Part shown: in pieces, positions 38,296-59,131 of the stretch | Position numbering within the stretch: position 1 is the stretch's first letter | Layout of the letters: each line of letters opens with the position of its first letter | Source: Deltaproteobacteria bacterium | Lineage (GTDB): Bacteria > Desulfobacterota > Deferrimicrobia > Deferrimicrobiales > Deferrimicrobiaceae | Direction: 5' to 3' | DNA length: 64,000 bases | NCBI GenBank assembly: GCA_016234845.1 | Contig: JACRNP010000012.1 | Coordinates: 478-64,477 of the forward strand | Position numbers and translations under genes: made by a program | Notes under the pieces: model-generated | What the model saw: only the letters and a program-made list of their open reading frames with translations | Database searches by the model: none | Told to the model about the DNA's origin: nothing

Positions 38296-40803
38296 ATGAC
38301 GTTCCTTTCGGCCGCGTTTTTCCTTTCCGGGGCGTCGGCGCTCCTGTTCGAAGTGTACTGGATCCGGCAGGTCACCCTGTCCATCGGGTCCTCTCCCGTC
38401 GCCTTCGCCGTCGTGTCATCGCTTTCGATCCTCGGTCTCGGCGTCGGAGCCAGGATGTTCCCCCGGGGGAATCCCGGGGGGAAGCGGCGCGCCTGGGTGG
38501 CGCCGGTGGCCTTCCAGTCGGGATTCGGCGTTTCGAACGCCCTTCTCTCCGGGCTTCCGTTTCCTCCGATTCCGTCCCTCCTCCTCTGTTCCCTGATCTC
38601 AGGTTTCGTCATCGCCGCCGTCATGGAAGAGCGGAGGCGGTCCCCGGCCGCGGATCAGGGAGCTGTCGGCTCTTTGTACGCGTCGAACTTCCTCGGAAGT
38701 GGATTCGGCGTCGCGCTCGGGGGATTTCTCCTCGTGCCTGCGACAGGGGTCTCCTCGACCCGGTGGGCGGCATTGGCGTTCAGCCTCCTGTCCCTGCCGC
38801 TTTACCTTGCCGCATTCCCGGGGGGATCGTCGAAACGGCTCGAATTGGAAACCGATGCACGACCCGCAGGAAAATTCGATCCCGTTCCATCCGCGATGGT
38901 GGCGGTCACCGGTGCGACGGGGATGGGAATGGAGATCCTGTGGGGCCGCTGGATCTCGCAAATGGCGGGCTCCTCGGTCTACACCTACTATTCGGTCCTC
39001 GCGGTCGCAATCGTCGCGTTCGGGGCAGGATGCCTCTCTCCACGCGTCATCGGGGGAGGGAGGCGATGTCTTTACGCCTATCTTTCGCTTGCGGTGGTTT
39101 ATCCTCTGTCGCTGCTCGTCGCCTTGCTCTCATTCGGCGAATTCGGGGTGTCTCCATATCGGTACGTCGCCGCCTTGACGGGTGGAAGTCCCGGGCCGGC
39201 CGTCCTGTCGTTCACGATCGTCGTAATGTCCCCGATTCTCTTCGGTTCGGGGCTCTTCTTCTCCTTCGCGGTCGGCGGCGGACTGTCGGACCGTCCGCCG
39301 CAGCACCGGACGCTGTTCATGCTCAATTGTCTGGGTGCGTCGGCAGGCGCCCTCGTCGTGCCGTTTGCCCTCATTCCGGCCGTCGGCACCGGGCCGGCTC
39401 TTTCCGCGGTGTGCGCGGCGAACCTCATCCCTGCGGCGGCCGTGGCGCTCCGCGCCGAGATGAAAGATCGTCGTCGCTGCATGTGGGCCGTCCTCGCTTC
39501 CGTTCCCTGCGTTGCTGCGGCAGCCTTCTGGCTCGCGGGTCGTCCCGCGATCTTTCTCCTGCACCGGGAGGGCGTCGGACTCGCCGGGAATGATGCGCCG
39601 TGGGGCGCATCCCCCGAGTTTCTCGAAGAGGGGCCGTTCTCCACGGTGATCGTCGGGGGGAAGCGGGGGCACGAGGTGCTTGTAGTGGACGGAAAACCCG
39701 AATCGCACGCGCTCCGGGACCGGCCGACACAGACGATGCTTGCCCAGCTTCCCTACCTCCTGAAGGGGGAAACGTTACGGGATGTGCTCCTGATCGGGCT
39801 CGGAAGCGGGGCCACCTTGGACGGGATTCTCCTGCACTCCGCCCGCGCCGTCGACTGCGTCGAGATCTCCCCCGAAGTCGTACGCGCGGTTCGCGAAGGA
39901 TACGGCCGCCGGTACGCCCCGGCCCTGTCGCGCCCGGGGGTTCGCATCGTCGTCGGTGATGGGCGGAGGTTCCTGCGGGATGCCGGGAAACGGTACGACC
40001 TCATCGTGTCCCAGCCATCCAACCCCTGGGTGATCGGCGCGTCCTCCCTGTTCTCCAGGGAGGCGTTCCTTGCCATGAGGCGCGCACTGGCGCCCGGCGG
40101 GGTCGCGGTAATATGGTTCCAGACATACGGCGTGTCGGCGGAGGATTTGCGCGTGGAACGCGACACGGTCCTGTCCGTATTCCGGGGCGTGCTCGCCTTC
40201 TCCTATTCGCCGGGAGACATCCTGTTCGTCTGCACCGCGGAACCGCTCGCCGTCGACGTACAAACGCTCAGGGACGGTCTTTCCGATCCGGCAATCCGGA
40301 AATACCTCCAACGGGAGGTCGGCATATCCACTCCTTCGGAACTCCTCGGGGGATTCCTGGGGGGCGCGAAGCGGGAAGGGACGCGGAACATGGAGTGGAA
40401 CACCGACGACCTTCCCGTCCTGGAGTACCGCATGGCGCGGTCCTTCCCGTTTCGCGATCCGTATCCTCCGTACGCGGAGATCATCGAGCCGCTCCAGGCG
40501 CGGGTGGAGCGAATCGCCGGATTACCGCCGGAAGGGACAAGGAGCAGGGGGGAATTCTTCCTGGAGTGGGGGGAGGCAGCATCGACATTCGGCCTGGCCC
40601 GGTTCGCGGAGGATCTGTTCCGCGAGGCGGTCCGCCTTCGCGGGGAGGACAGTCGATCGTTGAACGACCTCGGCATTGTCCGGTTCGAACGGAAGGAATA
40701 CAATGAATCATCCGACTTTTTCGAGGCCGCTTTGCGCCTCGATCCCGGGAACACCGTCGCCCGGGAGAACCTGGATGCCATCGGAAGGATGAGGCGAAGG
40801 TGA
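38296..40803 (+). CDS. Polytopic membrane protein fused to a spermidine-synthase-like (aminopropyltransferase / class I MTase fold) domain and a C-terminal TPR
   Basis: There are about 12 predicted TM segments in the first 400 aa. The SpeE-like core is VLLIGLGSGATLDGILLHSARAVDCVEISPEVV...VRIVVGDGRRFLRDAGKRYDLIVSQPSNPW. The C-terminal TPR is SLNDLGIVRFERKEYNESSDFFEAALRLDPGN. Confidence 0.7.
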   Translation: MTFLSAAFFLSGASALLFEVYWIRQVTLSIGSSPVAFAVVSSLSILGLGVGARMFPRGNPGGKRRAWVAPVAFQSGFGVSNALLSGLPFPPIPSLLLCSLISGFVIAAVMEERRRSPAADQGAVGSLYASNFLGSGFGVALGGFLLVPATGVSSTRWAALAFSLLSLPLYLAAFPGGSSKRLELETDARPAGKFDPVPSAMVAVTGATGMGMEILWGRWISQMAGSSVYTYYSVLAVAIVAFGAGCLSPRVIGGGRRCLYAYLSLAVVYPLSLLVALLSFGEFGVSPYRYVAALTGGSPGPAVLSFTIVVMSPILFGSGLFFSFAVGGGLSDRPPQHRTLFMLNCLGASAGALVVPFALIPAVGTGPALSAVCAANLIPAAAVALRAEMKDRRRCMWAVLASVPCVAAAAFWLAGRPAIFLLHREGVGLAGNDAPWGASPEFLEEGPFSTVIVGGKRGHEVLVVDGKPESHALRDRPTQTMLAQLPYLLKGETLRDVLLIGLGSGATLDGILLHSARAVDCVEISPEVVRAVREGYGRRYAPALSRPGVRIVVGDGRRFLRDAGKRYDLIVSQPSNPWVIGASSLFSREAFLAMRRALAPGGVAVIWFQTYGVSAEDLRVERDTVLSVFRGVLAFSYSPGDILFVCTAEPLAVDVQTLRDGLSDPAIRKYLQREVGISTPSELLGGFLGGAKREGTRNMEWNTDDLPVLEYRMARSFPFRDPYPPYAEIIEPLQARVERIAGLPPEGTRSRGEFFLEWGEAASTFGLARFAEDLFREAVRLRGEDSRSLNDLGIVRFERKEYNESSDFFEAALRLDPGNTVARENLDAIGRMRRR

Positions 40804-42170
40804 CTCGAACGAGAGCGCCGTTCCCGCTCCATCTCGGAATCCTCGCCGGGGTTCTGCTCCTCTCCCTTTGCGGTTGCCTGGGGGGTGGTTCCGCCGGGGT
40901 GGATCCCCCCGGGACGATTACGGGCACCGTTTCGATTCCCTCCACCGGGAAAACGGCGGGCATCGCTGTCCTGTTGCCCGCCCTCCGCCTGAAGACCGTC
41001 ACGGACAACACGGGGGCGTTCACCTTCGCGAACCTGCCGGCGGGTCCGTACACGGTCCAGGCGGAGGACAACGCCTACCGGCTGCAGGACCGGAAAACCG
41101 TGACGGTGAACGCCGGGCGGTCTTCAGGCGTTGTATTGACGCTCGTGCCGGATAACACGATCGGTACGGTGGTCGGCTCGGTTCCACGATCCGCGCTCGA
41201 TCCGTCGGGCAGGACCATCACCGCTTCGGTGCGGGACAACTACCTTTTCCTGGGAGATCACTTCGGCGGGGCGCCGATCGTCGATGTCGCCGACCCGCGG
41301 AATCCCGTCGTTCAATCGATCATCGGGCCGATCTCCATCCTGCCTCGTGGAACGACGTACATGACGTACCCCACGGAGGACGGGGACCATCTCGCAATCG
41401 TGAACAATATCGACGGGTTCCTGTATTACGACATCACGGACAAGGCAGCGCCGATCCTGTTGCGGCAGGTATACCTGGTCGACAATGCGATCGGCGGGAT
41501 CGATCCCGCCAGCCTGACCGACTATCCATATGCAGTACCGGCCGGGAAATTTGTCCTCTACCCGCAGTCCGTGACGGGCAAGGGAGACACCCTCTACGTG
41601 GCCGGCATGGACGTGATCCTGATCTACGACATCTCGAACCGCGCGAACCCTGTCCAGACCGGAGCGGTGGACAGGACGCGGATTGCCGGGGACGGCGCCG
41701 ATATCCACATTCACGACAACACCCTGCTGTATTCCGGCTCCGACCTGGTGGTATTCGATATCACGAATCCGCGGGCTCCTGCCCGTCTCGGCTCGTACAC
41801 CCCCGTGGGCGGATGGTCTCCGACGGGAGCGGCCGGATTCGGAAAGATCGTCGGAATGTCGACGATCGGCCATTTGGGACTGGGCATCCCCGGCATTCAA
41901 TTCATTAACGTCACCGATCCCGCTTCGCCGTCGGCCCTTGCCTCGTTCCCCGCCATTTCCCAAGGGATGGACTCCTCCTGGGATGGCTACTTCTACGCGG
42001 GAACCGACAATTCGATGACCGTGTACAAGGCGGACGAGGCGGCCATGAGCATCAGCGAGATGTACTCGGTGCCGGTGGTGGAGGATTACGCCATGAACGT
42101 GGCGGTGTCCGGCGACTATGCCTACGTGTCGGACAAGACGAAAGGGTTGAAGATCGTCAAGATCAAGTGA
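40800..42170 (+). CDS. Lipoprotein with a CarbopepD_reg-like domain and an LVIVD-repeat beta-propeller
   Basis: The GTG overlaps the upstream stop (GTGA). The lipobox is LLLSLCGC. The N-terminal domain is ITGTVSIPSTGKTAGIAVLL...FANLPAGPYTV. LVIVD-type repeats appear (for example DYAYVSDKTKGLKIVKI and GDTLYVAGMDVILIYDISNRANP). Confidence 0.65.
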   Translation: MTRTRAPFPLHLGILAGVLLLSLCGCLGGGSAGVDPPGTITGTVSIPSTGKTAGIAVLLPALRLKTVTDNTGAFTFANLPAGPYTVQAEDNAYRLQDRKTVTVNAGRSSGVVLTLVPDNTIGTVVGSVPRSALDPSGRTITASVRDNYLFLGDHFGGAPIVDVADPRNPVVQSIIGPISILPRGTTYMTYPTEDGDHLAIVNNIDGFLYYDITDKAAPILLRQVYLVDNAIGGIDPASLTDYPYAVPAGKFVLYPQSVTGKGDTLYVAGMDVILIYDISNRANPVQTGAVDRTRIAGDGADIHIHDNTLLYSGSDLVVFDITNPRAPARLGSYTPVGGWSPTGAAGFGKIVGMSTIGHLGLGIPGIQFINVTDPASPSALASFPAISQGMDSSWDGYFYAGTDNSMTVYKADEAAMSISEMYSVPVVEDYAMNVAVSGDYAYVSDKTKGLKIVKIK

Positions 42171-42178
42171 CGTCCCGT

Positions 42179-44500
42179 TCACTTCCGCCCCATTGCTCCC
42201 GGGGCGGAAACGTTCCGGTCGCGGACCGTTCCGAGTCTGGCCGCCCGGCGCAAATCCTCCGCTCCGCCCTCCGTGTCCCCGGCCCCGTTTCTTGCGATTC
42301 CTCGCAGAAAATACGATTCCGCGTCTCCAGGTGAAAGCGCGATTGCCGCGGAAAGGGATCTGACGGCTTCCGCGTACTTTCCCTCCGCACCCTGGACCTC
42401 GCCCAGCCGCCGCCAGGACTGGGGATTCCCCGGCGCGTATCTTGTCGCCCGCACCAGGTACTCCTCGGCCTTTCCCGGATCTCCCGCGGCGATGTGGCAT
42501 TCCCCGAGATTGTGAAGAGCGGGAGCGTAACTTCCGTTGACGGAGAGGGAAAGCTCGAACGCACGGATTGCTCCATCGAGGTCTCCCGTTTCAAACCGGA
42601 TGATACCCAACTTCGCGTAGGCGTCCTCGGAAGGGATGATCCGGATCGCCTCCCGGAGCTGTTCCTCCGCTCCCGGGGCGTCTCCCCATCCCTTGTAAAG
42701 GAGTATCCCTGCGAAGTACCGGGCCCAATAGTGGTCGGGCGCCGCGGCAAGGGAGTTGCGGAGCGTATCCGCCGCCTCGTCCCGCCGACCCAGAAACAAC
42801 GATCTTTCCGATGACATCCTGTGCATGTCGGAAACCAGTTCCCGGGTCCGATGATCCGGTCGGGGACCGGACGTCCGAAAGAAGGGTGTCGTGATGAACC
42901 GATCGCTCCGGAGATCGGGGAGATTCCCCGTCTTTGCCATGGAGAAGCCGTGGAGGAGTCCGAACGGGATGGAGACCTCCTCTCCGCCGGGGGCGTAGGG
43001 AGCCACCTGGTTGCTGAAATAGAGCTGCCCGGCATGTTTTCTCGATAGGGTTCGATCGATCTCCTTTCGTATCCGATCCTGTTCGGCGGGAAGGTCCTCG
43101 CCGTAAGCGGCGTTGTAATCGGTCCGGAAGAGGCGACCGCTGCGGCCGTACAAGGCCACGTCCTCCCGGTATCCTTCGACCAGGCGGAAGTAGAGGAGGG
43201 GGAACGTCGGAACGTCGTACTCCGTCGCCAGGGCGGATGACGGCGGAAGGGGATCCAGGAGATTGAGGGTGTATGCGTGCAGTTGCAGCGCTTCGGATCG
43301 GTCGGCCCGATCCCGGTTCGCGCGGATGGTCGCCGCCACCAGAAGAGCCAGGACGGAGAGGCAGATGGCTCCGGAAACGCGGCGGAAGGCCGCACCGGGT
43401 CGTCTCGCGGCGAATGCGGCGACCCATTCCCATATCTGCGCGGCGCCGAACGTGCATGCCAGCGCGAGCATCGCGTACGTTCCAAGGAACTTGTTGGAGC
43501 TGATCCCGAGAAAAATCTCCGGACTCGGATCGTTCAGGAGGAATATCGTACCCGCGGCGGGGAGGAGAAGCAGCATGAGGAACGCAGGAAGAAGATCGAG
43601 TCGGAATCGCCGCCAGAGAAGCCATGCTCCCGGCGGAAGGAGGAACGCGAAGGGCCACGGCCATTGCCCGCCGACGAGCCGAACGAGGTCCACTGTCCTT
43701 CGAAGAAGGCGTCCCCAGGAAAAATCGAGGGAAGGCCTCTCGGAGTACTGGGTCCAGAAGATATGACCGATGAAATTGGCGGCGGTTGATACTTCCCCCC
43801 AGTTCAGCGGCGGTCCGGTCGCAGCCCGCAGGGGAAGCAGAAGGAACAGGGACCAGCCGGCGGCTCCGCAGAGGATTGCATGGGGAATCGATCGCGCGGC
43901 GGCCCTCCACCCCGTTCTTCTTGCGAAGAGGAACGCGATTCCCGGAAGCGCGAACAGGATGAAATAGTGGATCCCCAGCATGAATCCGAAAAGGAACGCC
44001 GCGGAGCAAATGCGGTGATGATCGCGACGGGATCTTTCGGAACCGCCGATACCCGGAGGGACGGGAGGTGCCTGCGCGGCCAGCAAGAGGAGCAGCATGA
44101 GGCCGAATAAGTGGAGCGTATATACTTCCGCGGATCCGGATTGCGCCCAGATATCCGCGGAGAGGACCATCAGGATGGCTCCGAGAATCGAAGGGGCCGC
44201 GAGGCCGGTGACACGGAGCGCAAACAGGGCGAATACGGAAGACGCCGCGGCGGTCCCGATGGCAGACAGCAAGTTCAGACGGAACGCGGTGTTTCCGAGC
44301 GGGAGGAGTTCCGCGATCTTCCCGAGGACGACGTAGTGCGGGTACCCGGGAGGGTGGGGGATCCCGAGGACGTGGGCGGCGGCGGTGAACTCCGGGCTGT
44401 CTCCGGGATAGATCGATGGCGCAACGGTGAAGGAGAGCGCCCCCATCGCCGCGACGAAAGGAACCAGAACAACGGCGAGGAGGCGCCTTCGCTCATCCAC
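42179..44500 (-). CDS. DUF2723/PMT-like (GT39/GT83-type) polytopic glycosyltransferase-family membrane protein with C-terminal TPR repeats
   Basis: It is convergent with the upstream + gene, 8 bp apart. The N-terminal 520 aa are very hydrophobic (more than 10 TM) and carry the family-like N-terminal motif YPGDSPEFTAAAHVLGIPHPPGYP. The C-terminal 250 aa are TPRs (AGILLYKGWGD..., ALHNLGECHIAAGDPGKAEEYL..., SWRRLGEVQGAEGKYAEAVRSL...). Confidence 0.7.
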   Translation of the reverse strand: MDERRRLLAVVLVPFVAAMGALSFTVAPSIYPGDSPEFTAAAHVLGIPHPPGYPHYVVLGKIAELLPLGNTAFRLNLLSAIGTAAASSVFALFALRVTGLAAPSILGAILMVLSADIWAQSGSAEVYTLHLFGLMLLLLLAAQAPPVPPGIGGSERSRRDHHRICSAAFLFGFMLGIHYFILFALPGIAFLFARRTGWRAAARSIPHAILCGAAGWSLFLLLPLRAATGPPLNWGEVSTAANFIGHIFWTQYSERPSLDFSWGRLLRRTVDLVRLVGGQWPWPFAFLLPPGAWLLWRRFRLDLLPAFLMLLLLPAAGTIFLLNDPSPEIFLGISSNKFLGTYAMLALACTFGAAQIWEWVAAFAARRPGAAFRRVSGAICLSVLALLVAATIRANRDRADRSEALQLHAYTLNLLDPLPPSSALATEYDVPTFPLLYFRLVEGYREDVALYGRSGRLFRTDYNAAYGEDLPAEQDRIRKEIDRTLSRKHAGQLYFSNQVAPYAPGGEEVSIPFGLLHGFSMAKTGNLPDLRSDRFITTPFFRTSGPRPDHRTRELVSDMHRMSSERSLFLGRRDEAADTLRNSLAAAPDHYWARYFAGILLYKGWGDAPGAEEQLREAIRIIPSEDAYAKLGIIRFETGDLDGAIRAFELSLSVNGSYAPALHNLGECHIAAGDPGKAEEYLVRATRYAPGNPQSWRRLGEVQGAEGKYAEAVRSLSAAIALSPGDAESYFLRGIARNGAGDTEGGAEDLRRAARLGTVRDRNVSAPGAMGRK

Positions 44501-45986
44501 GGTCGGACACCATCGCCATTATCCGTGCCGCCACCCGGGCCTTCCGGATTAGTTCGCCCGGTGAACCGATGGACAACATCTGCCGACCCACGTATTTCCA
44601 ATTCAGATAGAACTCCCGGTAGGCGCTCCGCAGGCACCGTTCCAGTTCCGCGGAAGGAATCCCGGAAAACAGGTGGTTGTGTACGGGAGCGGAGTGGAGG
44701 CCGTGAAGCGCATTCTTCCCGATGTAGGTGGAGGAGCGGACTCCGCAGTTGCGCTCGAGGTCTCCGTACAGCTCGGTGCCGGGGAAAGGGGTGCAGATCG
44801 ACATGGTGAAATAGGTCGGGCGAATCTCCCGAATGAGGCGGATCGTCTCCTGGAAGTCCGCCGGCGATTCTCCGGGAAGCCCGACCATGGTATGGGAATG
44901 CGTGGATAGTCCCGACTTCCGGCAAGCCTCGAAAGCGGCCACGGTATCGGCCACGGAGATCCCTTTCCGGATCCGGTCGAGGACCGGCTGGCTTCCCGAC
45001 TCCACCCCCATCCGCACGAGGTGGCATCCGGCGGACCGCATCGCCCTTGCGGCCTCCTCATCGATCATATCCACCCGGGTGCTGCATATCCATTCGATCC
45101 GGATGCCCAGGCGGGATATTTCCGAACAGATCCGGAAGAGCCGCCGTCGATCCCCCGTGAACAGTTCATCCCGGAAGAATACCTCCCGATACCCTTCGTC
45201 GCGGACGACGCGCAGCTCGGATATGACGGACTCCGCGGACCGATATCGGGCTCTCCCCCCGAAGAATCCGGGCGAGGAGCAGAAGGTGCACCGGCCGAAG
45301 CAGCCGCGGGACGTGAACATCGTGGTGAAGCGCCGATGCCGCACGACCGGATTGAAGTACCTCCGGCTGTCCGGCAGCAGTTTTCGATCGGGAACCGGGA
45401 GGGAGTCCAGGTCCGGAGATGGCCCGGTGGTTTCCGGGAGCTCGACGACCCCGCCCCTCCTCCGGCCGACTCCGGGGATCTCTCCGAACCGGTATCCACC
45501 GTCGGTGAGGGATCGGCAGAGGCCGGAGAGGGCCGTCTCCGGCTCTCCGCATACGATGTAATCGATGCCGTCCCGGGCCAGCGCCTCCGCCGGCTGGAAG
45601 GTAGGAAAAGCACCGAGAAGAACGGTACGGGCGCCGGTGTTCGACCGCATCCGCCGGAGAAACGGGACGTCGATTTCCGCGCTGAGAGGCGAGGAAACGC
45701 AGATCAACAGGTCCTCCGGTGAAAGACGCGCTGCGACTTCCGACTCGGAGAGTCCTTCCGCCGGCGCGTCGGCGATCCGTGCGGGAATCCCTTCGCGGAG
45801 CAACATCGTCGCCATCTGGGCGAGGGGGACGGGGGGGAATTCGATGCCGCCGACCCTCCTGCCGCCGCACCAGCACCCGTGCATCAGGTCCCGGACAAGT
45901 CCCCGGTTTCCCGGCAGCGGGGGATTAACGAACAGTGCGCGCAACGATTTTCCCCCTCGATGTCTCCCGATTTCCCACGAGGCAAC
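44493..45986 (-). CDS. B12-binding-domain radical SAM protein (class B rSAM, methyltransferase-like)
   Basis: A cobalamin-binding-like N-terminus (ALFVNPPLP...IADAPAEGL...DLLICVSS) is followed by the rSAM cluster TSRGCFGRCTFCSS. The start is uncertain: the ORF track gives 46031, while a GTG near 45986 would reduce overlap with the upstream gene. Confidence 0.75.
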   Translation of the reverse strand, partial: VASWEIGRHRGGKSLRALFVNPPLPGNRGLVRDLMHGCWCGGRRVGGIEFPPVPLAQMATMLLREGIPARIADAPAEGLSESEVAARLSPEDLLICVSSPLSAEIDVPFLRRMRSNTGARTVLLGAFPTFQPAEALARDGIDYIVCGEPETALSGLCRSLTDGGYRFGEIPGVGRRRGGVVELPETTGPSPDLDSLPVPDRKLLPDSRRYFNPVVRHRRFTTMFTSRGCFGRCTFCSSPGFFGGRARYRSAESVISELRVVRDEGYREVFFRDELFTGDRRRLFRICSEISRLGIRIEWICSTRVDMIDEEAARAMRSAGCHLVRMGVESGSQPVLDRIRKGISVADTVAAFEACRKSGLSTHSHTMVGLPGESPADFQETIRLIREIRPTYFTMSICTPFPGTELYGDLERNCGVRSSTYIGKNALHGLHSAPVHNHLFSGIPSAELERCLRSAYREFYLNWKYVGRQMLSIGSPGELIRKARVAARIMAMVSDRG

Positions 45987-47625
45987 GGTAGGAGATTTCC
46001 TGCCCGCTCGTCTCGAATCCGAGGTCCACATTCACCGTGCCGCCGGTGCGCCACGCATCCGAGATGGCCGCCGCGGTATCCCCGGAGAGGATCGGGGGAA
46101 GGGAGAGCTCGAGCTCGGAAAACATCTGGGACGAGGGATGGTTCGAGGGTCCGCCTCCCGGAACGGTGTACAGCTCCGTTCCCCGCGCGGCCCGTGAAGC
46201 GTCGAGGGAGTCAAGGATCCGGATGGTTCCGGGTAGAATATCGATCCGACGGCGAAGGCGGGCCGGTCCGGGCGCACCGGGGCCAAACGCGTACGACTTG
46301 ATCCGGGTTTCGATCCATCCTCCCGCGCCGAACAGTCGTCCACCGGCGAGACAGGACGAAACCAGCCGCGCGTGCCGACTTCCCCCGGGGAGGGATCGGA
46401 AGGTGGCGGACCCCTCCACCGCATCTCCGGCCGCATGAAGGAAACTCCCGTCCCAGTACGGAATGAAGATTTCACGCCGGGAGCGGAGACAATACGTGTG
46501 CCCGATCCATATCGTCCGGTGCAATGTGTTCGAAAACACCGCGATCCCTCCCCTCCTCTCCTGGAGGTGAACCCGGAACGCATCACCGGAGAACACCCGC
46601 ACCCCCCCCTGTTCCCTGTGGGACGATTTTGGGACATCCTCCCCGGGTTCGACGACCGCATCGGAGCAGCGAAAATGGGCGTCCACGTAAGAGGGGAGGA
46701 AAAAATGGGCGGTATACCGCCGATCGGCAGTCGACGGCGTCGGGATCCTCCCCTCGAAAGCCGCGAGGCGGATCCGGCGCGCGACACGCCGGGCGGCCGG
46801 CTCCTCCTCCGCCCAGCGTTCGATGGCGTAGGGCACGATGAAGTTCGTTCCGCGCCATGAAAGCGAGGAAGGGCTGGAGCCGTCGGGCAGGACGGAGGCG
46901 TCGAGAAATTCCAGCCCGGACCGGATCGCGTCCCGGACTCCCCGGAGTCCGCGGTCGAAGCAGCGCGTGAGGGAATCCAGCGTCAGGGATTCGTACCCCG
47001 GATCGGGCCCGCCGTACTCGGAAGTCCATCCTTCCCGCGTGCGCCCGGACAGGATCCTTTCCAGGAAGCGGTCCCTGGATCGGCCCCACCGGGATCCGAG
47101 GAGGGAGCAAGAGTTGTGGAAGGCGAGAAGCGCGGCGGCGGACTGGTTCCCGGGATGGGATTCCTTTACGCGAGCCATCCAGGCGGCGGCGCGCTCCAGA
47201 ACGGCAAGCACGCTCCGCCTTCCGGCGGAACCGGAGGGATCTCCCGGTTGCAGAAGTACTTCCGAGAGATACGCGGAAAGGTACGCCGTAGCGCAGAAAC
47301 TCGGCTGGCCGGGATACCATTCGGGGAAAGAACCGTTTTTGTTCTGCCGCGATGCGGTAAAGACGAGTGCCCCGCGAAGCAGCCGGAGGAGTTCGTCGTT
47401 CCGATGATACGGATTGCCCCGTCCGTCCTCCGACCAAAGACGGGCGAGGGGATAGACGGCGCACTGCAGGGTCGCCGGGTGGAAATCGCCGGCGAAACGG
47501 TAGAGCCAGGACTCCCGATTGAAGCTCCCCTCCAGCAGGGAGCCCGGGGAACGGTCGAGATCCCCGAGTAGGCGATGCAGGGCGGGGGTGATATGATCCC
47601 AGTATGGTGTTGCGGGAAGGCTCAT
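45925..47625 (-). CDS. Hypothetical (alpha/alpha)-toroid-like protein, possibly heparinase II/III-like or a six-hairpin lyase/glycosidase; function uncertain
   Basis: It is a 566-aa ORF in an operon-like arrangement with the glycosylation/modification genes. Segments such as ASRQNKNGSFPEWYPGQPSFCATAYLSAYL are typical of toroid-fold carbohydrate-active proteins. The family assignment is tentative. Confidence 0.45.
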   Translation of the reverse strand: MSLPATPYWDHITPALHRLLGDLDRSPGSLLEGSFNRESWLYRFAGDFHPATLQCAVYPLARLWSEDGRGNPYHRNDELLRLLRGALVFTASRQNKNGSFPEWYPGQPSFCATAYLSAYLSEVLLQPGDPSGSAGRRSVLAVLERAAAWMARVKESHPGNQSAAALLAFHNSCSLLGSRWGRSRDRFLERILSGRTREGWTSEYGGPDPGYESLTLDSLTRCFDRGLRGVRDAIRSGLEFLDASVLPDGSSPSSLSWRGTNFIVPYAIERWAEEEPAARRVARRIRLAAFEGRIPTPSTADRRYTAHFFLPSYVDAHFRCSDAVVEPGEDVPKSSHREQGGVRVFSGDAFRVHLQERRGGIAVFSNTLHRTIWIGHTYCLRSRREIFIPYWDGSFLHAAGDAVEGSATFRSLPGGSRHARLVSSCLAGGRLFGAGGWIETRIKSYAFGPGAPGPARLRRRIDILPGTIRILDSLDASRAARGTELYTVPGGGPSNHPSSQMFSELELSLPPILSGDTAAAISDAWRTGGTVNVDLGFETSGQEISYRCLVGNRETSRGKIVARTVR

Positions 47626-47633
47626 CTTATCGG

Positions 47634-48215
47634 GTGTACGTCGTACCCGCCGTGGCGGTTACTCTCATTGCTCTCATCTTCATCATAATACGTTTGGAGC
47701 GGGACTCTTCCCGGTATTTGCGGCTCGGCGACCAGTCGGTCCGCAGCGGGCGGACCGCGGAAGCACTTTTCTACTGGAAGATGTCCCTGCTGATGTACGT
47801 GCCGTACTCACCCGCATCCCGTCAGGCGGGCGAACGGATAAGGGCCACCGCGGTGGCGTCCCTGGAGAGGGGGGATGTCGAAACCGCAGCGCGTGCCTTC
47901 GGGTACCTGAGATCCGGTCTCCTCGGGATCCGGCACATCGCGCAACCGATGCCCGACCTGCTTCTCGACGCGGAAAAACATCTCATCGTTCTTCGGCCTT
48001 CCGTGTCGCGGGATACGGAGGATTCAAGGTTCCGGCCGGGAGGATCCGCCCTCGCGGGTACGGCACTCCTTTGCGCCGGATTTCTCGCGTGGCCGATATC
48101 CTTTTTCTGGATGCTGCACGGCTGGGGGAAGTTCGGCCGACCGCTCCAGCCGCGTTATGCGCTTCCCGGTACGATTTCACTCCTGATGCTCGCCGCGGGT
48201 GCCTTGCTCGCCTGA
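47634..48215 (+). CDS. Hypothetical small membrane protein
   Basis: The GTG at 47634 gives VYVVPAVAVTLIALIFIII (TM) and a C-terminal TM (GFLAWPISFFWMLHGW). The region is locally less GC-rich. The ORF-track start at 47604 would overlap the divergent gene start. Confidence 0.4.
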   Translation: MYVVPAVAVTLIALIFIIIRLERDSSRYLRLGDQSVRSGRTAEALFYWKMSLLMYVPYSPASRQAGERIRATAVASLERGDVETAARAFGYLRSGLLGIRHIAQPMPDLLLDAEKHLIVLRPSVSRDTEDSRFRPGGSALAGTALLCAGFLAWPISFFWMLHGWGKFGRPLQPRYALPGTISLLMLAAGALLA

Positions 48216-48230
48216 GGACTTCGAATCCGG

Positions 48231-49589
48231 TTACGGTTTCGTAAGGACCGCCACTCCCAACGTGCCGAAACGGGACTCCTTCCCGGCGTCTCTTCCGAGT
48301 CGCCGCTCCATCCAGCCGGCGAAACGGTTCTCCGGCACTTCACGGTGGAGGTAGGTCCGTCCTCCCGATCGACGGTACTGCTGATAAAGTCGGAAGAATT
48401 CCGGGAGGAGCGGGGGAACCGGGAACCTTCGGTGGATTTTCACGCGGAATCCCGCATCCCGGGCGTGGCGCGCGACCGTATCGGGGCGGACCGGCCGGTA
48501 CGGGCCGAAGAAGGAGTGGACAGCCGTCTTCCGAAGGTTGTCGCCGCGGGACGCGAGCAGGAGGCGGTGGAGGGCCCCATACAGGGAGGATGATATCCGG
48601 AATACGACCAGGAAGCGGCCTCCGGACCGGAGCAACCGCCAGATCCGCTCGAAGAGACGCCGGTACTCCCGCTCCGGCAGCCGCTCGATCCGGAATATCA
48701 GCGTGGCGTTGTCGAAAACGCCGTCCGGAAATGGATCGAGCCGTTCGAAGGTTAGGAATGATGCCTCGGGAAAGGTCCGCGCCAGCGTTTCGCGGGAGTA
48801 CCCGGATGTCTCCTCGGAGAGGTCGGCGAAGGTGGCCAGGCACTTGACGGGCCGAAAGAACTCGAGTGAAGAATGCCCGTCGTAGGAGAACAGGTCCAGG
48901 CAGGTTCCGCCCTCCAGCGGGAACAGGGATCGGGCCTCGGAGATCTCCAGGGGGGAGAAGATGTCCTGGGGGGTACCTTGAATGGTCTTCCCGCACTCCA
49001 GCCGCTGGTGTGTCCGGATCTGCTCCAGGTTCCAGCGATCGGCGTCGTGGGTCAGCGGATAGGCAGGCGCTTCGGAAAAGCGTCCCCAATGGGTTATCTC
49101 CTCGATCGGCTTCCTGGAGGGAGGGGGAGGGGCCTCGTCCGGATATCCCGTCAGAACGATCGATGTCAGGAAATATTCCGGCGGGTAACCGAGGATCTTC
49201 CGGCAGCGGGCCTCGTTCCCGAAGGAGTTGAGCCAGAGCGCACCCAGTCCCTGGTTCCCCGCCTCGATGAGCATATTTTCGATTGCGGCGGAAGAGGACT
49301 GGAATCCTTCCGCCATGTTTTCGTTCCTGTACAGGCATGCGATCGCGACGGGCGCCTCCTTCAGCAGGCGGGACGCTCCCGCATCCCGTACGAGCGCGGC
49401 TCTCGCTTCGGCATCTTCGATCACGATGAAGTGCCAATCCTGGCGGTTGCATGCGGAAGGCGCGATCCGCGCGGCTTCGAGAAGCGCGAGGATTTTCCCC
49501 CGTTCCACGGGCCGATGCCGGAATCGGCGTACGCTCCTCCGGTTCCGAAGGAGTTCGGATATCGGCGGGATCCTATTTTCCGGCGACAT
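48231..49589 (-). CDS. Nitroreductase-family domain fused to a class I SAM-methyltransferase-like domain
   Basis: The N-terminus is LRNRRSVRRFRHRPVERGKILALLEAARIAPSACNRQDWHFIVIED (nitroreductase). The C-terminal half has methyltransferase-like motifs GGTCLDLFSYDGHSS...LLRSGGRFLVVF. Confidence 0.65.
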   Translation of the reverse strand: MSPENRIPPISELLRNRRSVRRFRHRPVERGKILALLEAARIAPSACNRQDWHFIVIEDAEARAALVRDAGASRLLKEAPVAIACLYRNENMAEGFQSSSAAIENMLIEAGNQGLGALWLNSFGNEARCRKILGYPPEYFLTSIVLTGYPDEAPPPPSRKPIEEITHWGRFSEAPAYPLTHDADRWNLEQIRTHQRLECGKTIQGTPQDIFSPLEISEARSLFPLEGGTCLDLFSYDGHSSLEFFRPVKCLATFADLSEETSGYSRETLARTFPEASFLTFERLDPFPDGVFDNATLIFRIERLPEREYRRLFERIWRLLRSGGRFLVVFRISSSLYGALHRLLLASRGDNLRKTAVHSFFGPYRPVRPDTVARHARDAGFRVKIHRRFPVPPLLPEFFRLYQQYRRSGGRTYLHREVPENRFAGWMERRLGRDAGKESRFGTLGVAVLTKP

Positions 49590-50301
49590 AAAACTGGCGC
49601 AACCCGAGATCGGAAAGACCGAGGGCGTTCATGGCAGGTGCAATCCGCTCCGCGAGGGAAAGGAGTGCCCCGCACTCGACGGGGAGAAAGAGGGTCCCTT
49701 GATGCTCGCGCAGCCGGAATCCCGCCGCCGCCAGCATCCGCTTCACCTCCCAGGAGAAATAGAACCGGTGGGGCCCCTCCCCGTGGTCCGCTGTCGCCCG
49801 TTCGTATAGGCGTTGGGGGAGTTCCATGACGGCTGTCGGCGCGCTCAGGATGAGGATCCCCTCGGGACGGAGCGCCCGGAAAAGACCCGAGAGAAACGCT
49901 TTCGGATCGGGGGAGTGTTCCAGCGTTTCCAGGCTGAGGAGGAAATGGAACGGTTCGCGGAACCGCATCGTTTCGGGGGTCAGATCCGTCATTCCGAACG
50001 ATTCGAGGGGAAATTTCTTCCGGCTGATCCCGATCATCACCTCCGACGCCTCCAGGTTCGCGATCTCCGCGTCCGGCATCCGTTTTCTCAGGTAGGGGAG
50101 AGCTTCCCCGGTGCGGGACCACACATTGAGGATTCGGAGCGGACGAATGCCGTCCAGATGCCGCCCGTGGATATTCCAAAGGTCTATCGCCTTCCGGAAT
50201 CTCTGGTGGTGGATCCGACGAACGCGGTCGTTCGAATTGTCGTATTCGTCCCCGACGGCGTCCCAGTGCGCCCGCACCGCTTCGATGGTGAATCCGGCCA
50301 T
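49573..50301 (-). CDS. Class I SAM-dependent methyltransferase
   Basis: Motifs RILNVWSRTGEALPYL (motif I-like) and RALRPEGILILSAP are present. The likely start is MAGFTIEAV at 50301, overlapping the upstream stop. Confidence 0.65.
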   Translation of the reverse strand: MAGFTIEAVRAHWDAVGDEYDNSNDRVRRIHHQRFRKAIDLWNIHGRHLDGIRPLRILNVWSRTGEALPYLRKRMPDAEIANLEASEVMIGISRKKFPLESFGMTDLTPETMRFREPFHFLLSLETLEHSPDPKAFLSGLFRALRPEGILILSAPTAVMELPQRLYERATADHGEGPHRFYFSWEVKRMLAAAGFRLREHQGTLFLPVECGALLSLAERIAPAMNALGLSDLGLRQFYVAGK

Positions 50302-50302
50302 C

Positions 50303-51211
50303 TCACCCCCTCCGGTCGATGAGATCGGCAAGTACTCCGATTGCTCCCGTAAGAAGGAAGGCCACCCAGACGATGACCGTCTTTTCCGTGATATCGTTTA
50401 AATGGATGATGTCGTAAAGAGTAAGGGTCACCGCGGAGGCGCCCGCGGCGAGGCACAAGGGAAGGAAGAATTTCAGCGGGTCGAAATGGACCACGGTTCG
50501 GACGATCAAGTGGAGGAAAAGCACCGTGTCGCGGAGGGGACGGATCTTGGAGACGCCTACCCTCGGGTGATAGGGGATGGGAACATATGCGACCCGGTAG
50601 GCGTTCATCAGGAGCGCCAGCGTGATCGTGGAGGTCAAGGAAAATCCGTCGGGGAGCATGCGGAAAAATTTCTCCAGCAGCTCCTTCCGGATGATCCGGA
50701 GGCCGGAGTTCAGATCCGGAATCGGGTGACGTACCAGGCGATGCGCCAGGGCCCGGATCATCCATTTGCCTGCCCTCCGTCCGAGGGAGGGACCCGCCCC
50801 GCCGCCCGGCCGGGCACCGACGACCATGTCCGAGTGAGGAAGTTCCGCGATGATTCCGGGGATTGCCTCCGCCGGATAGGATCCGTCGCCGTCGATCAAC
50901 AGGATCCACGGGTGCCGGGCGGCCCGGAACCCCTTCTTGATCGAGTATCCGTATCCCGTGTTGACGGGGTTGTGGATCACCCGGCAGCAGGGGAGGGAGA
51001 CGGCGTCAAGGATGGCCCCGGTGGCGTCGGTGGAACCGTCGTCGACGATCAGGATCTCGTACGATTCCGTGCAGCTTTCGAGAATGCGCTGAAGCCGGCG
51101 GAGCGTGTCCTCGATGGCCCCCTCCTCGTTGTAAACAGGGAGGATGGCGGATATGTTCCTATCCGGAGTATCGGATGCCAAGGGGTCGCAGGGTGACTTT
51201 TTTTGCTTCAT
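50303..51211 (-). CDS. Family-2 glycosyltransferase, polyprenyl/dolichyl-phosphate sugar synthase-like (DPM1/GtrB/ArnC-type) with C-terminal TM helices
   Basis: Motifs are ISAILPVYNEEGAIEDTL...YEILIVDDGSTDAT...LLIDGDGSYP. Two C-terminal TM helices follow (TVLFLHLIVRTV..., LPLCLAAGASAVTLTLY). The likely start is MKQKK at 51211; the ORF track gives 51259. Confidence 0.75.
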   Translation of the reverse strand: MKQKKSPCDPLASDTPDRNISAILPVYNEEGAIEDTLRRLQRILESCTESYEILIVDDGSTDATGAILDAVSLPCCRVIHNPVNTGYGYSIKKGFRAARHPWILLIDGDGSYPAEAIPGIIAELPHSDMVVGARPGGGAGPSLGRRAGKWMIRALAHRLVRHPIPDLNSGLRIIRKELLEKFFRMLPDGFSLTSTITLALLMNAYRVAYVPIPYHPRVGVSKIRPLRDTVLFLHLIVRTVVHFDPLKFFLPLCLAAGASAVTLTLYDIIHLNDITEKTVIVWVAFLLTGAIGVLADLIDRRG

Positions 51212-51255
51212 GTTACACGGGATTCTCCTTTCGCGCCATCCACCTTGGCGTAGCG

Positions 51256-52389
51256 GCAATGGTTCTGGTCATTTCAGTCGTCAACGTGTCGATCGCCGCG
51301 GAAGCCGATCCCGTCCATATACGCGATGCGGATTGGTTTAAACGGGGTGGTGTGCCGGAAATCCTCGCTTCGGATCCGGGCGCTCCCATGCTGCTTTTCT
51401 CCGCGGACGACCAGGTCCGCACCCTCCTGCCCGGAAGATTTTCTTCCGCTCCGGTTCGACTCACGCAAGTGGTTCCGCTGGAATCCGGAGTCGACCAATC
51501 CCACTTCGAACGGTGGCTCGCCACGCTTCCGGTCGATGTCCGCAACGCAGGGCGGTTCACCCTCGACAATGGCGTCATCCGCGGCAAGGGGGGATTCGGG
51601 GAAGCCACCGTGACAGCGCTGGACCGGCCGGGGGAGTGGCCTCGACGTCCGATCCTCGTGATCGATACCGCCTTCCTTCTCTCCCTGTACAAGGATGAAG
51701 TCCGCACGCCGATGGTCCCTCTGGTTGTAAAATTGTACGCGACGATCCGGAGAGCGGATATCGCTCCCATATCGGTCTGGATCGTCAGCAGGAACCGAGA
51801 AGTATCTTTCCCACTGGAGTTCGGGTACCTTCCGGTCCTCGTCCGGGAGATATTCTCCACCCCGCGCAACTTTCGGGAAGAGCTCCCGGAGACCTGGAGG
51901 CGAGTGCAATCCGCCCAGCAGCTTGTTTTTTTCGGTCAAACCGATGAGGCGCTCGAAGCATTGAAGGAACTTCTCTTCCCGGAAACCGCGTCGTACGCAT
52001 ACTACCAATCGGCGGTACTGCAGTTCCGGGAGGCGCGGATCGAAGAAGGAGTGCGGAATCTTCGAGCCGGGTCTTCGATCGATTCCGACTACGGAAGGGG
52101 GTTTCTCCTCCAGGCAGGCGCTTTTTGGGCCAAGGGAGAAGTCGGGATCGCCGAATTCATTCTCCGCGAAGGATTTTCGATGTTCCCCGGAGAGACATCC
52201 TTGGCCGTAGGTTTGGCCAGGTCGCTGGCGGAGCAGGCGATCGGTGAGAGGGATGAGGCGCCTGACCGGTCGATGATGCGAATTCGAGAGGCCATCGGTT
52301 TGCCCATCCCGGATGAGTTACGGAAAGAGATCCTGCATGCTTACGGCGGTCCGCCGATTGATTCGGGGGCGGCTGGGAATTCCGAGTGA
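51256..52389 (+). CDS. Secreted hypothetical protein
   Basis: It is divergent from the GT2 gene. The signal peptide is MVLVISVVNVSIAAEA. I recognised no family. The ORF-track start at 51175 would overlap the divergent gene. Confidence 0.5.
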   Translation, partial: AMVLVISVVNVSIAAEADPVHIRDADWFKRGGVPEILASDPGAPMLLFSADDQVRTLLPGRFSSAPVRLTQVVPLESGVDQSHFERWLATLPVDVRNAGRFTLDNGVIRGKGGFGEATVTALDRPGEWPRRPILVIDTAFLLSLYKDEVRTPMVPLVVKLYATIRRADIAPISVWIVSRNREVSFPLEFGYLPVLVREIFSTPRNFREELPETWRRVQSAQQLVFFGQTDEALEALKELLFPETASYAYYQSAVLQFREARIEEGVRNLRAGSSIDSDYGRGFLLQAGAFWAKGEVGIAEFILREGFSMFPGETSLAVGLARSLAEQAIGERDEAPDRSMMRIREAIGLPIPDELRKEILHAYGGPPIDSGAAGNSE

Positions 52390-58033: not shown

Positions 58034-59131
58034 ATGAGCGTCTGGAAAAAAACCGTGTTGTTGATCGCGGCCCTGTCGGTGGCGGCCGGCTGTTCGCGTC
58101 CGGTGCTGATCTCCAGCAGCCAGCCGTCGAAGACCAAGGACCAGTATCTGCGCGTAAAGAAGGTTTCCGTCTTCCCGTTCGAGAACTACTCGGACCTGAA
58201 GGACGCCGACAAGGCGATCGACGCCCTGCTCGTCCCGGCCCTTCGGGACCTGGAAGTGTTCGACGCCGTCGAGGACACCCGCTTCACGCGGGACATCATG
58301 AAGAAGCTCAAGATCACCTCCACCGACATTCTCGACAAGGAGCTGATGAAGAAGTTCGGCGACGAGATGAACGTCCAGGCGATCGTCTTCGGGAAGATCG
58401 TCTCCTTCGGCAAGGGGAAGGAGAAGGACTCGTCGAGCCAGGTCACCATGGACCTGTCCCTGTTCGATCCCTCCACGGGCTCTGTTCTGTGGGCCGGAAA
58501 CGTCAGCGCTTACGGGGGGCTGACGGCGGGGAAGGTGTTCGGGGTCACCGAGGGGATGCTCGACATCGAGGTGGCGCGCGACGCCGTGAAGCGGATCACC
58601 AGGGCGATGGCGTCCGACATCCGCGACGCCCGGAACCGGGAACGGAAGGGGGTCATCGCCGAGATCCGGAAGGAAGAGGAGCAGGAGCGGGCGCGCCTCG
58701 AGAAGCTGAAGGGCGAGACCGGGAAGATCCAGGCGACCATCGACAAGGCGAAGGCGGAGGCCCAGGGGATCCGCGATTCCGCGGCGAAGGACGCGGAGAA
58801 GAGCAAGACCGACCTCGAGCTGCAGAAGGCGGCGTTCGAGGCCGAGAAGACCAGGACGCAGGCCGCGCAGCAGGAGATCGACCAGGAGAAGTTGAAGGTC
58901 GAGGTCGAGCGGAAGAAGGTAGCGGAAGAGCTGAAGCGGATAGAGGACGAGAAGCGGGCGCTTGAAGAGGCCCGCAGGAAAGCCGAGGAGGCGAAGAAGG
59001 CCGCGGAATCCCCCGCCGCGTCCCCGCCTCCGGCGACGCCCCCCGCGCCGGCGGACTCCTCCGGGACTCCCCCGGCTCCGGCCGTGCCGGAAACCGCTCC
59101 CGCGCCGCCGGCGGGAAAAACGGGGCCGTAG
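58034..59131 (+). CDS. Lipoprotein with an N-terminal globular domain, a long coiled coil and a Pro/Ala-rich C-terminus
   Basis: The lipobox is LLIAALSVAAGCS. The coiled coil is ERARLEKLKGETGKIQATIDKAKAEAQ...ELKRIEDEKRALEEARRKAEEAKKAAE. The tail is PAASPPPATPPAPADSSGTPPAPAVPETAPAPPAGKTGP. Confidence 0.65.
   Translation: MSVWKKTVLLIAALSVAAGCSRPVLISSSQPSKTKDQYLRVKKVSVFPFENYSDLKDADKAIDALLVPALRDLEVFDAVEDTRFTRDIMKKLKITSTDILDKELMKKFGDEMNVQAIVFGKIVSFGKGKEKDSSSQVTMDLSLFDPSTGSVLWAGNVSAYGGLTAGKVFGVTEGMLDIEVARDAVKRITRAMASDIRDARNRERKGVIAEIRKEEEQERARLEKLKGETGKIQATIDKAKAEAQGIRDSAAKDAEKSKTDLELQKAAFEAEKTRTQAAQQEIDQEKLKVEVERKKVAEELKRIEDEKRALEEARRKAEEAKKAAESPAASPPPATPPAPADSSGTPPAPAVPETAPAPPAGKTGP

Follow-up and report, generated by a model that had tools for sequence, protein, structure and literature searches.

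Does a gene cluster that lies beside very large multihaem cytochromes encode a system for attaching sugars to secreted proteins and, if so, what kind of transferase does it employ? The question is raised by positions 42179–51259 of a 64,000-nucleotide stretch of contig JACRNP010000012.1, from a deltaproteobacterium of the family Deferrimicrobiaceae; the whole stretch, with a GC content of 60–70%, is referred to below as the window. The bacterium is uncultured: a 428-aa fragment of one gene product is 100% identical to a protein with the locus-tag prefix HZB86 from a metagenome-assembled genome of a Deltaproteobacteria bacterium, probably obtained in a groundwater survey. A previous reading of this DNA, made without database searches (hereafter, the sequence-only reading), had described six co-oriented minus-strand genes in this interval as a polyprenyl-phosphate-sugar glycosylation module. 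Pfam and NCBIfam searches recovered all six open reading frames (ORFs) at these coordinates with the domains that had been named, and the core of the description stands, namely a sugar-lipid synthase, a C-fold glycosyltransferase (GT-C) and genes for sugar tailoring, whereas the two methyltransferases it included did not prove to be conserved parts. Our central finding is that, judged by sequence comparison, the transferase is a bacterial member of the TMEM260/DUF2723 family and not a PMT_2 or ArnT protein. The explanation we favour, with a probability somewhat better than even, is periplasmic protein O-glycosylation, in which a tailored sugar carried on a lipid phosphate would be transferred by this TMEM260-type GT-C to secreted acceptors encoded at the same locus. 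The four genes on which this proposal centres are the following.

42179..44500, minus strand: TMEM260/DUF2723-type GT-C, the proposed transferase (773 amino acids (aa); PF11028 and tetratricopeptide repeat (TPR) families)
44493..45944, minus strand: B12-type radical S-adenosylmethionine (SAM) enzyme, proposed to tailor the sugar (483 aa from TTG 45944, ORF to 46031; PF04055)
45925..47625, minus strand: toroid plus beta-sandwich protein with a lyase-like fold, cytoplasmic (566 aa; AlphaFold2 model and Foldseek)
50303..51211, minus strand: family 2 glycosyltransferase (GT2) of the polyprenyl-phosphate sugar synthase type (PF00535; ORF to 51259, 318 aa)

The transferase is a bacterial relative of TMEM260

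The 773-aa protein scores 86.9 bits against PF11028 (DUF2723; cut-off 24.2), with TPR families toward the C-terminus, and PF11028 is present in all 12 of its orthologues. The sequence-only reading had called it a PMT/DUF2723-type polytopic transferase with TPRs; the DUF2723 and TPR elements of that label are borne out and the PMT element (PF13231) is withdrawn, since no PMT_2 match was obtained at E ≤ 0.01. That reading had also asked whether the protein would cluster with ArnT. When its N-terminal 530 residues were compared by phmmer with all sequences in the PDB at E ≤ 10, human TMEM260 was the sole match and no ArnT or PMT structure was retrieved. On this family evidence, ArnT-like lipid A modification was discarded as the leading model. 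A profile of the 12 orthologues matched TMEM260 in the PDB (9RQL) with an E-value of 3.8e-45 over chain residues 30–463, from the first membrane helix through into the luminal Rossmann-like domain; the identity between the bacterial protein and metazoan TMEM260 is approximately 25%.

An AlphaFold2 model computed with 58 family members as input has a mean predicted local distance difference test score (pLDDT) of 91.6 and a predicted template modelling score (pTM) of 0.90. Membrane helices extend to about residue 381, followed by a five-stranded alpha/beta domain at residues 388–523 and TPRs at residues 532–745, the helix count and topology being assigned by homology. A Foldseek search of the PDB with this model was dominated by TPR proteins, and 9RQL was not among the matches; the family placement therefore rests on the sequence and profile searches. 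The layout corresponds to that reported for TMEM260 by cryo-electron microscopy (9RQL), which consists of a GT-C membrane core, a Rossmann-like domain and TPRs (bioRxiv 10.64898/2026.03.17.711096). In the human enzyme D52, H67, R264, Y267 and D441 are essential and R355 is important (bioRxiv 10.64898/2026.03.17.711096; PMC10214176). D441 is the catalytic base in the Rossmann-like domain and activates the threonine hydroxyl of the peptide, and R264 and Y267 of the donor-loading loop, together with R355 of transmembrane helix 10, contact dolichyl phosphate mannose, R264 at the phosphate and R355 at the mannose. The TPR domain binds peptide in TMEM260, the TMTCs and OGT.

Most of these residues can be traced in the bacterial protein. 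D34, H49, Y252 and D429 (773-aa numbering) align with D52, H67, Y267 and D441 of TMEM260 and are invariant in 12 of 12 orthologues; across the 58 aligned bacterial family members, the D52 site is D in 57, the H67 site H in all 58, the Y267 site Y in 43 and the D441 site D in 48. At the position of R264 all 12 orthologues, and none of the other aligned members, have W (W249 in the window protein), and at that of R355 they alone have N (N336) with K as the next residue; 31 of the 58 have R at the R264 position. The restriction of these replacements to one clade suggests an altered donor site rather than a lost function. The clade itself is small: orthologous transferases form approximately 12 protein clusters at 44–100% identity in a database of 5.8 billion sequences, the next matches being at 26%, and two GTDB species representatives with an orthologue were found among the matches listed. 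The database copy of the transferase begins 18 residues downstream of the start of the 773-aa ORF. No further orthologous loci appeared among the matches listed in a metagenome scan, all of which were distant DUF2723 proteins at ≤39% identity.

A linked synthase and two putative tailoring enzymes

The GT2 protein had been described as being of the DPM1/GtrB type with C-terminal transmembrane helices, and every part of this description is confirmed. It scores 103.7 bits against PF00535 and has hydrophobic helices at residues 264–282 and 292–315 of the 318-aa ORF, and its closest solved structures are all lipid-phosphate glycosyltransferases (ArnC, 6.4e-17; Pyrococcus furiosus dolichyl-phosphate mannose synthase (DPMS), 1.8e-13; GtrB sll0501, 1.9e-7). 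By these sequence comparisons it resembles the polyprenyl-phosphate sugar synthases. The best NCBIfam models, AglJ (85 bits, cut-off 325) followed by a dolichyl-phosphate hexose transferase, score below their cut-offs, as do ArnC (58.5 against 529) and, weakly, PgfS (4.2e-11). Because no equivalog cut-off is reached, the sugar cannot be named.

The second enzyme contains the radical SAM domain PF04055 (92.6 bits) with a CFGRCTFC (CX3CX2C) cluster motif; its match to the B12-binding domain PF02310 is weak (24.5 bits, cut-off 32.1), and that domain is listed in the precomputed annotation of an identical protein, P0274. One homologue, 55% identical, carries the label Candidatus Deferrimicrobiaceae. 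The sequence-only reading had it as a methyltransferase-like, B12-binding radical SAM protein, of which the first attribute finds no support: the best-scoring characterised relatives are HpnJ (191.2, cut-off 577.6) and AprD4 (136.6, cut-off 500), in alignments of nearly full length, and the closest solved structure is AprD4 (6fd2, E = 2.3e-30). HpnJ and AprD4 belong to the B12-domain radical SAM enzymes and act on amino-sugar moieties by rearrangement or dehydration; the window protein scores far under the cut-offs of both families.

The third protein, which the sequence-only reading saw as a toroid-fold lyase or glycosidase, had no match in the scanned copy of Pfam or in NCBIfam; some of its relatives carry a weak PF25840 (Ulvan_lyase_N) match in precomputed annotations. 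Its family comprises 2247 representatives, 946 of them below 1e-30, with some members fused to GNAT, amidohydrolase or GH30-C domains. The AlphaFold2 model (pLDDT 77, pTM 0.82) consists of helices over residues 9–320 and strands over residues 342–560, and its fold vindicates the earlier perception: Foldseek retrieved PL33, PL8, PL15, PL17, GH154 and glucuronate dehydratase structures at TM scores of 0.32–0.48, and full-length matches to the four polysaccharide lyase families reached 0.40–0.48 with E-values down to 1.3e-6. The identity to the solved lyases is 9–13%. Neither sequence membership nor the catalytic residues of a named polysaccharide lyase family (PL8, PL15, PL17, PL21 or PL33) were found, nor was an extracytoplasmic location, a hydrophobicity scan having revealed no signal peptide and no hydrophobic segment. 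Conserved polar residues in the family are R37, W40, Q54, Q94, N160, E203, D208, Y211, R258, D301, R459 and D472. A terpene cyclase, prenyltransferase or transcobalamin-like toroid was considered and not preferred, the Foldseek matches to such proteins being confined to the barrel and ranked below the lyases.

These three genes also travel together outside the lineage of the window. Among the loci retrieved for comparison, which are cited by number, a GT2–toroid–B12-type radical SAM cassette recurs at five that are unrelated to the window and come from other assemblies and samples (L093, L094, L095, L092 and L087). The identity to the window proteins is 37–38% for GT2, 25–36% for the toroid protein and 39–44% for the radical SAM enzyme in L093 and L094, and 25%, 26% and 39%, respectively, in L095. 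In L087, L093, L094 and L095 the cassette genes lie together, often in overlapping frames; frequent companions are an asparagine-synthase-like amidotransferase (AsnB), SAM methyltransferases and a SPASM radical SAM protein. A PMT_2-type or unnamed polytopic protein with 10–13 hydrophobic segments is encoded near the cassette in L093, L094 and L095 and, in part, in L092 and L087. L087, an example of the classical sugar or O-antigen-like clusters in which distant relatives of the toroid protein are found, additionally encodes AsnB, a GFO/IDH/MocA oxidoreductase, a hexapeptide acetyltransferase and a deacetylase. This pattern points to a trio that makes a tailored lipid-linked sugar, to be consumed by different GT-C enzymes. 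One might speculate, from the association with AsnB and the lyase-like fold, that the sugar is of the uronic acid type.

Conservation of the cluster beside secreted proteins

The remaining genes of the cluster and the neighbours that are relevant to the proposed function are listed below.

47604..48215, plus strand: small membrane protein, orf203 (203 aa; orthologues and three hydrophobic segments)
48231..49589, minus strand: fusion of a nitroreductase-family flavoprotein with a SAM methyltransferase (452 aa; PF00881, weak Methyltransf_25/_11)
49573..50301, minus strand: SAM-dependent methyltransferase (242 aa from ATG 50301, ORF to 50331; Methyltransf_23)
51175..52389, plus strand: signal-anchored TPR404 protein (404 aa; faint TPR match), divergent from the GT2 gene
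26228..35829, plus strand: giant multihaem cytochrome, candidate acceptor (two ORFs, 1425 and 1775 aa)
35899..38205, plus strand: secreted protein with a bacterial Ig-like Big_1 domain, candidate acceptor (768 aa; Big_1 98.1 bits)
38296..42170, plus strand: spermidine-synthase-like polytopic protein (835 aa) and LVIVD-repeat lipoprotein (456 aa) (Pfam matches)

The likely true starts are GTG 44500 for the transferase, TTG 45944 for the radical SAM gene (taken from protein P0274), ATG 50301 for the methyltransferase (in agreement with the gene call at L001) and ATG 51211 or TTG 51181 for GT2. The radical SAM stop and the transferase start overlap by 8 nucleotides (nt), and the toroid and radical SAM genes by 20 nt. 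The module genes have orthologues at 37–85% identity in syntenic loci from other samples and are therefore not chance ORFs.

Conservation was assessed from gene tables and by searching all fetched loci with the window proteins in tblastn. The transferase, the radical SAM enzyme, the toroid protein and orf203 occur together in all orthologous loci, in a rearranged order and on varying strands; GT2 and TPR404 accompany this core in L001, L003, L005 and L090, and neither was detected in L006. Orthologues of orf203 (hydrophobic segments 7–35, 149–171 and 185–203) are 40–69% identical in L001, L003, L005, L006 and L090, at varying positions and on either strand, and the protein had no family match in Pfam or NCBIfam, GtrA included. 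TPR404, which has an N-terminal hydrophobic segment, has orthologues at 46–71% identity adjoining GT2 in L001, L003, L005 and L090. Both these plus-strand genes, orf203 and the divergent TPR404, had been left out of the sequence-only reading and belong to the conserved unit.

The fusion and the separate methyltransferase had been recognised correctly (PF00881, 90.4 bits, with weak Methyltransf_25/_11; Methyltransf_23, 47.6 bits), and both genes are confined to the window and its 77%-identical relative (L001/L008). Their absence from L003, L005, L006 and L090 rules them out as core components, and the methyltransferases that accompany the distant cassettes are not their orthologues. L006 has a variant tailoring unit: at positions 2385–6241 the radical SAM gene precedes a gene for an FrhB/FdhB-like flavin/iron-sulfur protein of 448 aa, a toroid gene cut down to a 315-aa remnant, and an ORF of 58 aa.

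On the other side of the cluster, the Big_1 protein and the giant cytochrome are encoded beside the transferase in every locus with sufficient flanking sequence, that is, the window, L001, L006 and L090, and this adjacency is kept through rearrangements while the transferase identity ranges from 44 to 77%. In L090 the order on a single strand is cytochrome, Big_1, transferase and orf197, with gaps of 95, 202 and 10 nt. Orthologues of Big_1 adjoining the cluster in L001, L006 and L090 are 59–78% identical, and L003 and L005 have Big_1 fragments where their contigs end. The 1775-aa part of the cytochrome has orthologues at 55–86% identity adjoining Big_1 in L001, L006 and L090. The link to secreted targets and giant cytochromes, which the sequence-only reading had named as a point to be verified, thus holds down to 44% transferase identity. 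The spermidine-synthase-like and LVIVD pair is present in the window, L001, L003 and L006 and absent in L090, where the transferase follows Big_1 directly. The N-terminal CarboxypepD_reg domain of the LVIVD lipoprotein weakly matches the model of the anammox S-layer glycoprotein Kustd1514 (E = 1.8e-6, far below the cut-off).

The cytochrome is encoded in the window by two ORFs (26228–30505, 1425 aa with 17 CXXCH motifs, and 30502–35829, 1775 aa with 22), and its relatives in L001 and L006 are single proteins of 2391+ to 2980 aa. The split is likely to be a frameshift or an assembly error, and the intact protein may be of approximately 3200 aa. At the junction (30480–30520) the first ORF ends in an arginine-rich tail that looks out of frame. 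The giant cytochrome genes lie within positions 13587–35829, and serine and threonine make up 19–24% of their products (20–24% in the split cytochrome at 26228–35829). The Pro/Ala/Ser/Thr-rich tails to which the sequence-only reading had drawn attention, in an 87-aa monohaem cytochrome (24968–25231) and a lipoprotein (58034–59131), are real.

We also examined 157 generic DUF2723 loci (2.0 Mb), comprising the best 80 from each of two scans minus three orthologous ones. A GT2 homologue was found nearby in 15 of them and a radical SAM homologue in two; a toroid, Big_1 or cytochrome homologue was found in none of the 157, and the linkage is therefore specific to the transferase clade. DUF2723 genes as such are widespread across many phyla; every collection scanned yielded more than 567 confirmed matches. 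Another locus, L028 (2175–14049, a Candidatus Firestonebacteria metagenome-assembled genome), has two adjacent convergent DUF2723-plus-TPR genes, a PMT_2 gene, a DUF2142/PMT_2 gene, a GT2 gene and a radical SAM gene whose product is 31% identical to that of the window, and so combines four GT-C genes in one cluster.

A proposed pathway and its alternatives

Co-occurrence, overlapping genes and the recurring cassette suggest that the genes of the module are functionally coupled. In the pathway we propose, GT2 would transfer a sugar from a nucleotide donor to polyprenyl phosphate at the cytoplasmic face of the membrane, where the co-inherited toroid and B12-type radical SAM proteins would probably tailor it on the lipid; in the lineage of the window only, further tailoring may come from the nitroreductase-like domain and the two SAM methyltransferases. 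The lipid-linked sugar would then be flipped across the membrane and bound within the membrane core of the GT-C by D34, H49 and Y252, the periplasmic TPR and Rossmann-like domains would hold an extended acceptor peptide, and D429, the equivalent of D441 in TMEM260, would activate the serine or threonine hydroxyl. The likeliest acceptors would be the giant cytochromes, Big_1 and perhaps the LVIVD lipoprotein. A dedicated GT2 and tailoring cassette are linked to the transferase, which makes plain polyprenyl-phosphate mannose an improbable donor. The identity of the sugar, the roles of the tailoring enzymes and the choice of acceptors are predicted here from family and genomic context. Mannose transfer from polyprenyl-phosphate mannose to protein serine or threonine is the activity of TMEM260, and for the bacterial homologue it would be an extrapolation. 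The Ig-like IPT clients of TMEM260 have a parallel in the adjacent Ig-like Big_1 protein that is suggestive only. The most specific form of the proposal, that the giant cytochromes and Big_1 are themselves O-glycosylated by a bacterial TMEM260 orthologue with a sugar built on polyprenyl phosphate and remodelled by the radical SAM and lyase-fold enzymes, we put forward as tentative and somewhat doubtful.

Several observations weigh against protein O-glycosylation by this route. Two donor-contact residues of TMEM260 (R264 and R355) are replaced throughout the clade, and, of a possible asparagine ladder in the TPR domain, a single asparagine is invariant among the orthologues. Inspection of the neighbouring proteins for a sequon of the TMEM260/IPT type yielded nothing convincing, so this sequon offers no means of naming acceptors. 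Nor was a flippase gene recognised. The polytopic proteins adjacent to the cassette elsewhere have no detected TPR, and their acceptors could be lipids or glycans; the toroid protein resembles lyases at the level of fold only; and the radical SAM enzyme scores far below all NCBIfam cut-offs, so that its tailoring chemistry is not assignable. The synteny comprises four loci from one narrow lineage. Full-text searches for papers on bacterial DUF2723 proteins returned TMEM260 papers only; no bacterial member is known to have been characterised, and a preference for protein acceptors is therefore carried over from a metazoan enzyme of approximately 25% identity.

Part of this evidence would fit an alternative in which the tailored sugar is the same and the acceptor is not a protein. 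The sugar would be passed to lipid A or the lipopolysaccharide core, to peptidoglycan or to an exopolysaccharide, as by ArnC/ArnT, RgtE/RgtA-D, GtrB/Gtr and CsbB/YfhO, and the adjacency of the cytochrome would reflect a shared cell-surface island, not an enzyme–substrate relation. Such an alternative would be in line with ArnC as the best solved relative of GT2, with the PMT_2-type or unnamed polytopic proteins devoid of detected TPRs near the cassette elsewhere, with a toroid fold shared with enzymes whose substrates are acidic polysaccharides, with distant toroid relatives in classical sugar or O-antigen-like clusters such as L087, and with the failure to find a sequon. We nevertheless consider it unlikely. 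Neither ArnT nor any solved GT-C other than TMEM260 is detectably similar to the transferase, the transferase has kept the aspartate of the Rossmann-like domain that in TMEM260 activates threonine, its long periplasmic TPR domain is of a kind that binds peptides in TMEM260, TMTCs and OGT, and Big_1 and the cytochrome have stayed beside it through rearrangements at 44–77% identity.

A protein acceptor does not by itself imply that the neighbours are the substrates. The transferase could serve a general periplasmic O-glycosylation system with many secreted and membrane clients, the low-complexity tails and the cytochromes being incidental neighbours. The distribution of DUF2723 in many phyla, at more than 567 confirmed matches per collection, agrees with this, as does the lack of Big_1 or cytochrome genes near all 157 generic loci from the best 80 of each scan. 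Bacterial general O-glycosylation systems are known to target low-complexity regions rich in serine, threonine, alanine and proline, which is a further point in its favour. What makes a general system distinctly unlikely is the behaviour of the clade to which this transferase belongs: its 12 clusters are found only beside Big_1 and a giant cytochrome where the flank suffices, the L090 transferase gene is co-directional with both, and the donor site and the donor cassette are clade-specific.

The remaining explanation, that two unrelated units happen to be adjacent, a GT2/GT-C pair and a radical SAM/toroid/methyltransferase unit that makes a separate small molecule or modifies a lipid, for instance a polyprenol or a hopanoid-like compound, could draw on the hopanoid enzyme HpnJ as best NCBIfam model, on the lower-ranking matches of the toroid model to class II terpene cyclases and on the plasticity of L006 with its 315-aa toroid remnant and FrhB-like insertion, but is very improbable, given that GT2, toroid and radical SAM genes co-travel in L087, L093, L094 and L095, often in overlapping frames, that the radical SAM and GT-C genes overlap in this lineage, that the HpnJ score is about one third of its cut-off, and that the lyase matches span both domains of the toroid protein and the cyclase matches the barrel only.

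Relation to known systems

The favoured pathway of periplasmic protein O-glycosylation finds its closest counterpart in human TMEM260, a protein O-mannosyltransferase for the IPT domains of plexins, cMET and RON (PDB 9RQL, 9RQM and 9RQN). The likeness extends to PF11028, the succession of GT-C core, Rossmann-like domain and TPRs, the equivalents of D52, H67, Y267 and D441, and the non-cytoplasmic placement of the TPRs; the window transferase differs in being bacterial, in having W and N-K at the R264 and R355 positions and in having neighbours without an IPT-type sequon.

The two-step logic is that of the Dpm1/Ppm1 and PMT systems of yeast, Mycobacterium and Streptomyces, where a GT2 makes the polyprenyl-phosphate sugar on the cytoplasmic side and a GT-C transfers it to serine or threonine of exported proteins. 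The window GT2 matches DPMS (1.8e-13) in keeping with this, whereas the transferase has neither PMT_2 nor MIR domains, there are additional radical SAM, toroid and methyltransferase genes, and the candidate substrates are clustered with the machinery. Tailoring of the sugar on its lipid carrier has a precedent in ArnC/ArnD/ArnT, the aminoarabinose pathway of lipid A, in which ArnD alters the sugar while it is on undecaprenyl phosphate and a GT-C transfer follows. ArnC is also the closest solved structure to the window GT2, but the transferase is not similar to ArnT and has a TPR domain, and genes for the biosynthesis of 4-amino-4-deoxy-L-arabinose are lacking in the window. The combination of a hairpin GT2, a small membrane protein and a polytopic GT-C recalls GtrA/GtrB/Gtr, which glucosylates O-antigen, and CsbB/YfhO, which glycosylates teichoic acid, with the GT2 matching GtrB sll0501; the differences are that orf203 has no GtrA match, that the predicted acceptor is a protein and that tailoring enzymes are present.

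Machinery encoded beside its surface-protein substrate is also familiar from the Pgf system of Streptococcus mutans (PgfS, PgfM1, PgfE and PgfM2), which consists of a GT2 and polytopic membrane proteins and glycosylates the adjacent adhesin Cnm. The sole comparison made here is the weak, below-cut-off match of GT2 to PgfS; Pgf uses another transferase family, belongs to a Gram-positive bacterium and has no radical SAM or toroid enzymes.

The logic of a lipid-linked sugar and a GT-C is thus already known from Dpm1/PMT, ArnC/ArnT and GtrB/Gtr. What is new is a transferase of the TMEM260 family that is bacterial and has a donor site peculiar to its clade, together with its linkage to a GT2–toroid–B12-type radical SAM cassette not described before and its conserved position beside giant cytochromes. 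A full-text search found no papers that link such a glycosylation system to multihaem cytochromes. If the proposal is correct, the large bacterial DUF2723 family and the unnamed cassette would each gain a first functional assignment, and a glycosylation pathway linked to human disease would have a prokaryotic root. Glycosylation of the giant cytochromes, should it occur, would bear on the stabilisation, export or solubility of very large extracellular electron-transfer proteins. The occurrence of the cassette with other large polytopic proteins indicates that it may be a general, undescribed route to unusual lipid-linked sugars. With a transferase, a dedicated donor pathway and plausible substrates at one locus, the window offers a tractable test case.

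Other features of the window

The module genes (42179–51259) have a GC content at third codon positions of 0.73–0.77, compared with 0.85–0.95 in the cytochrome and downstream genes, and the GC content of the region falls to 0.60–0.65; differences in expression or in history may lie behind this. To the right of the cluster (52513–56061) lies a gene for a secreted protein of 1182 aa with a weak match to M6 (immune inhibitor A) peptidases, Reg_prop repeats and a C-terminal hydrophobic anchor, which is found beside the cluster in L001 and L003 as well and not in L090.

Directly upstream of the giant cytochromes, the segment 9544–12985 encodes two radical SAM/SPASM-type proteins, an extracytoplasmic function (ECF) sigma factor and an anti-sigma factor (zf-HC2), the last of which carries a domain resembling the CBM48/AMPK glycogen-binding domain. 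At the left end of the window (67–5788), ResB-like and NosD/beta-helix/DUF4198 genes are present that recur beside the cluster in L090 (1282–5986), which suggests a larger conserved island for cytochrome maturation and surface proteins. Toward the right end (61895–63436), an N-terminal AhpC/TSA-redoxin domain is fused to a cytochrome with 10 CXXCH motifs, and this gene is preceded by a separate redoxin gene (61297–61887).

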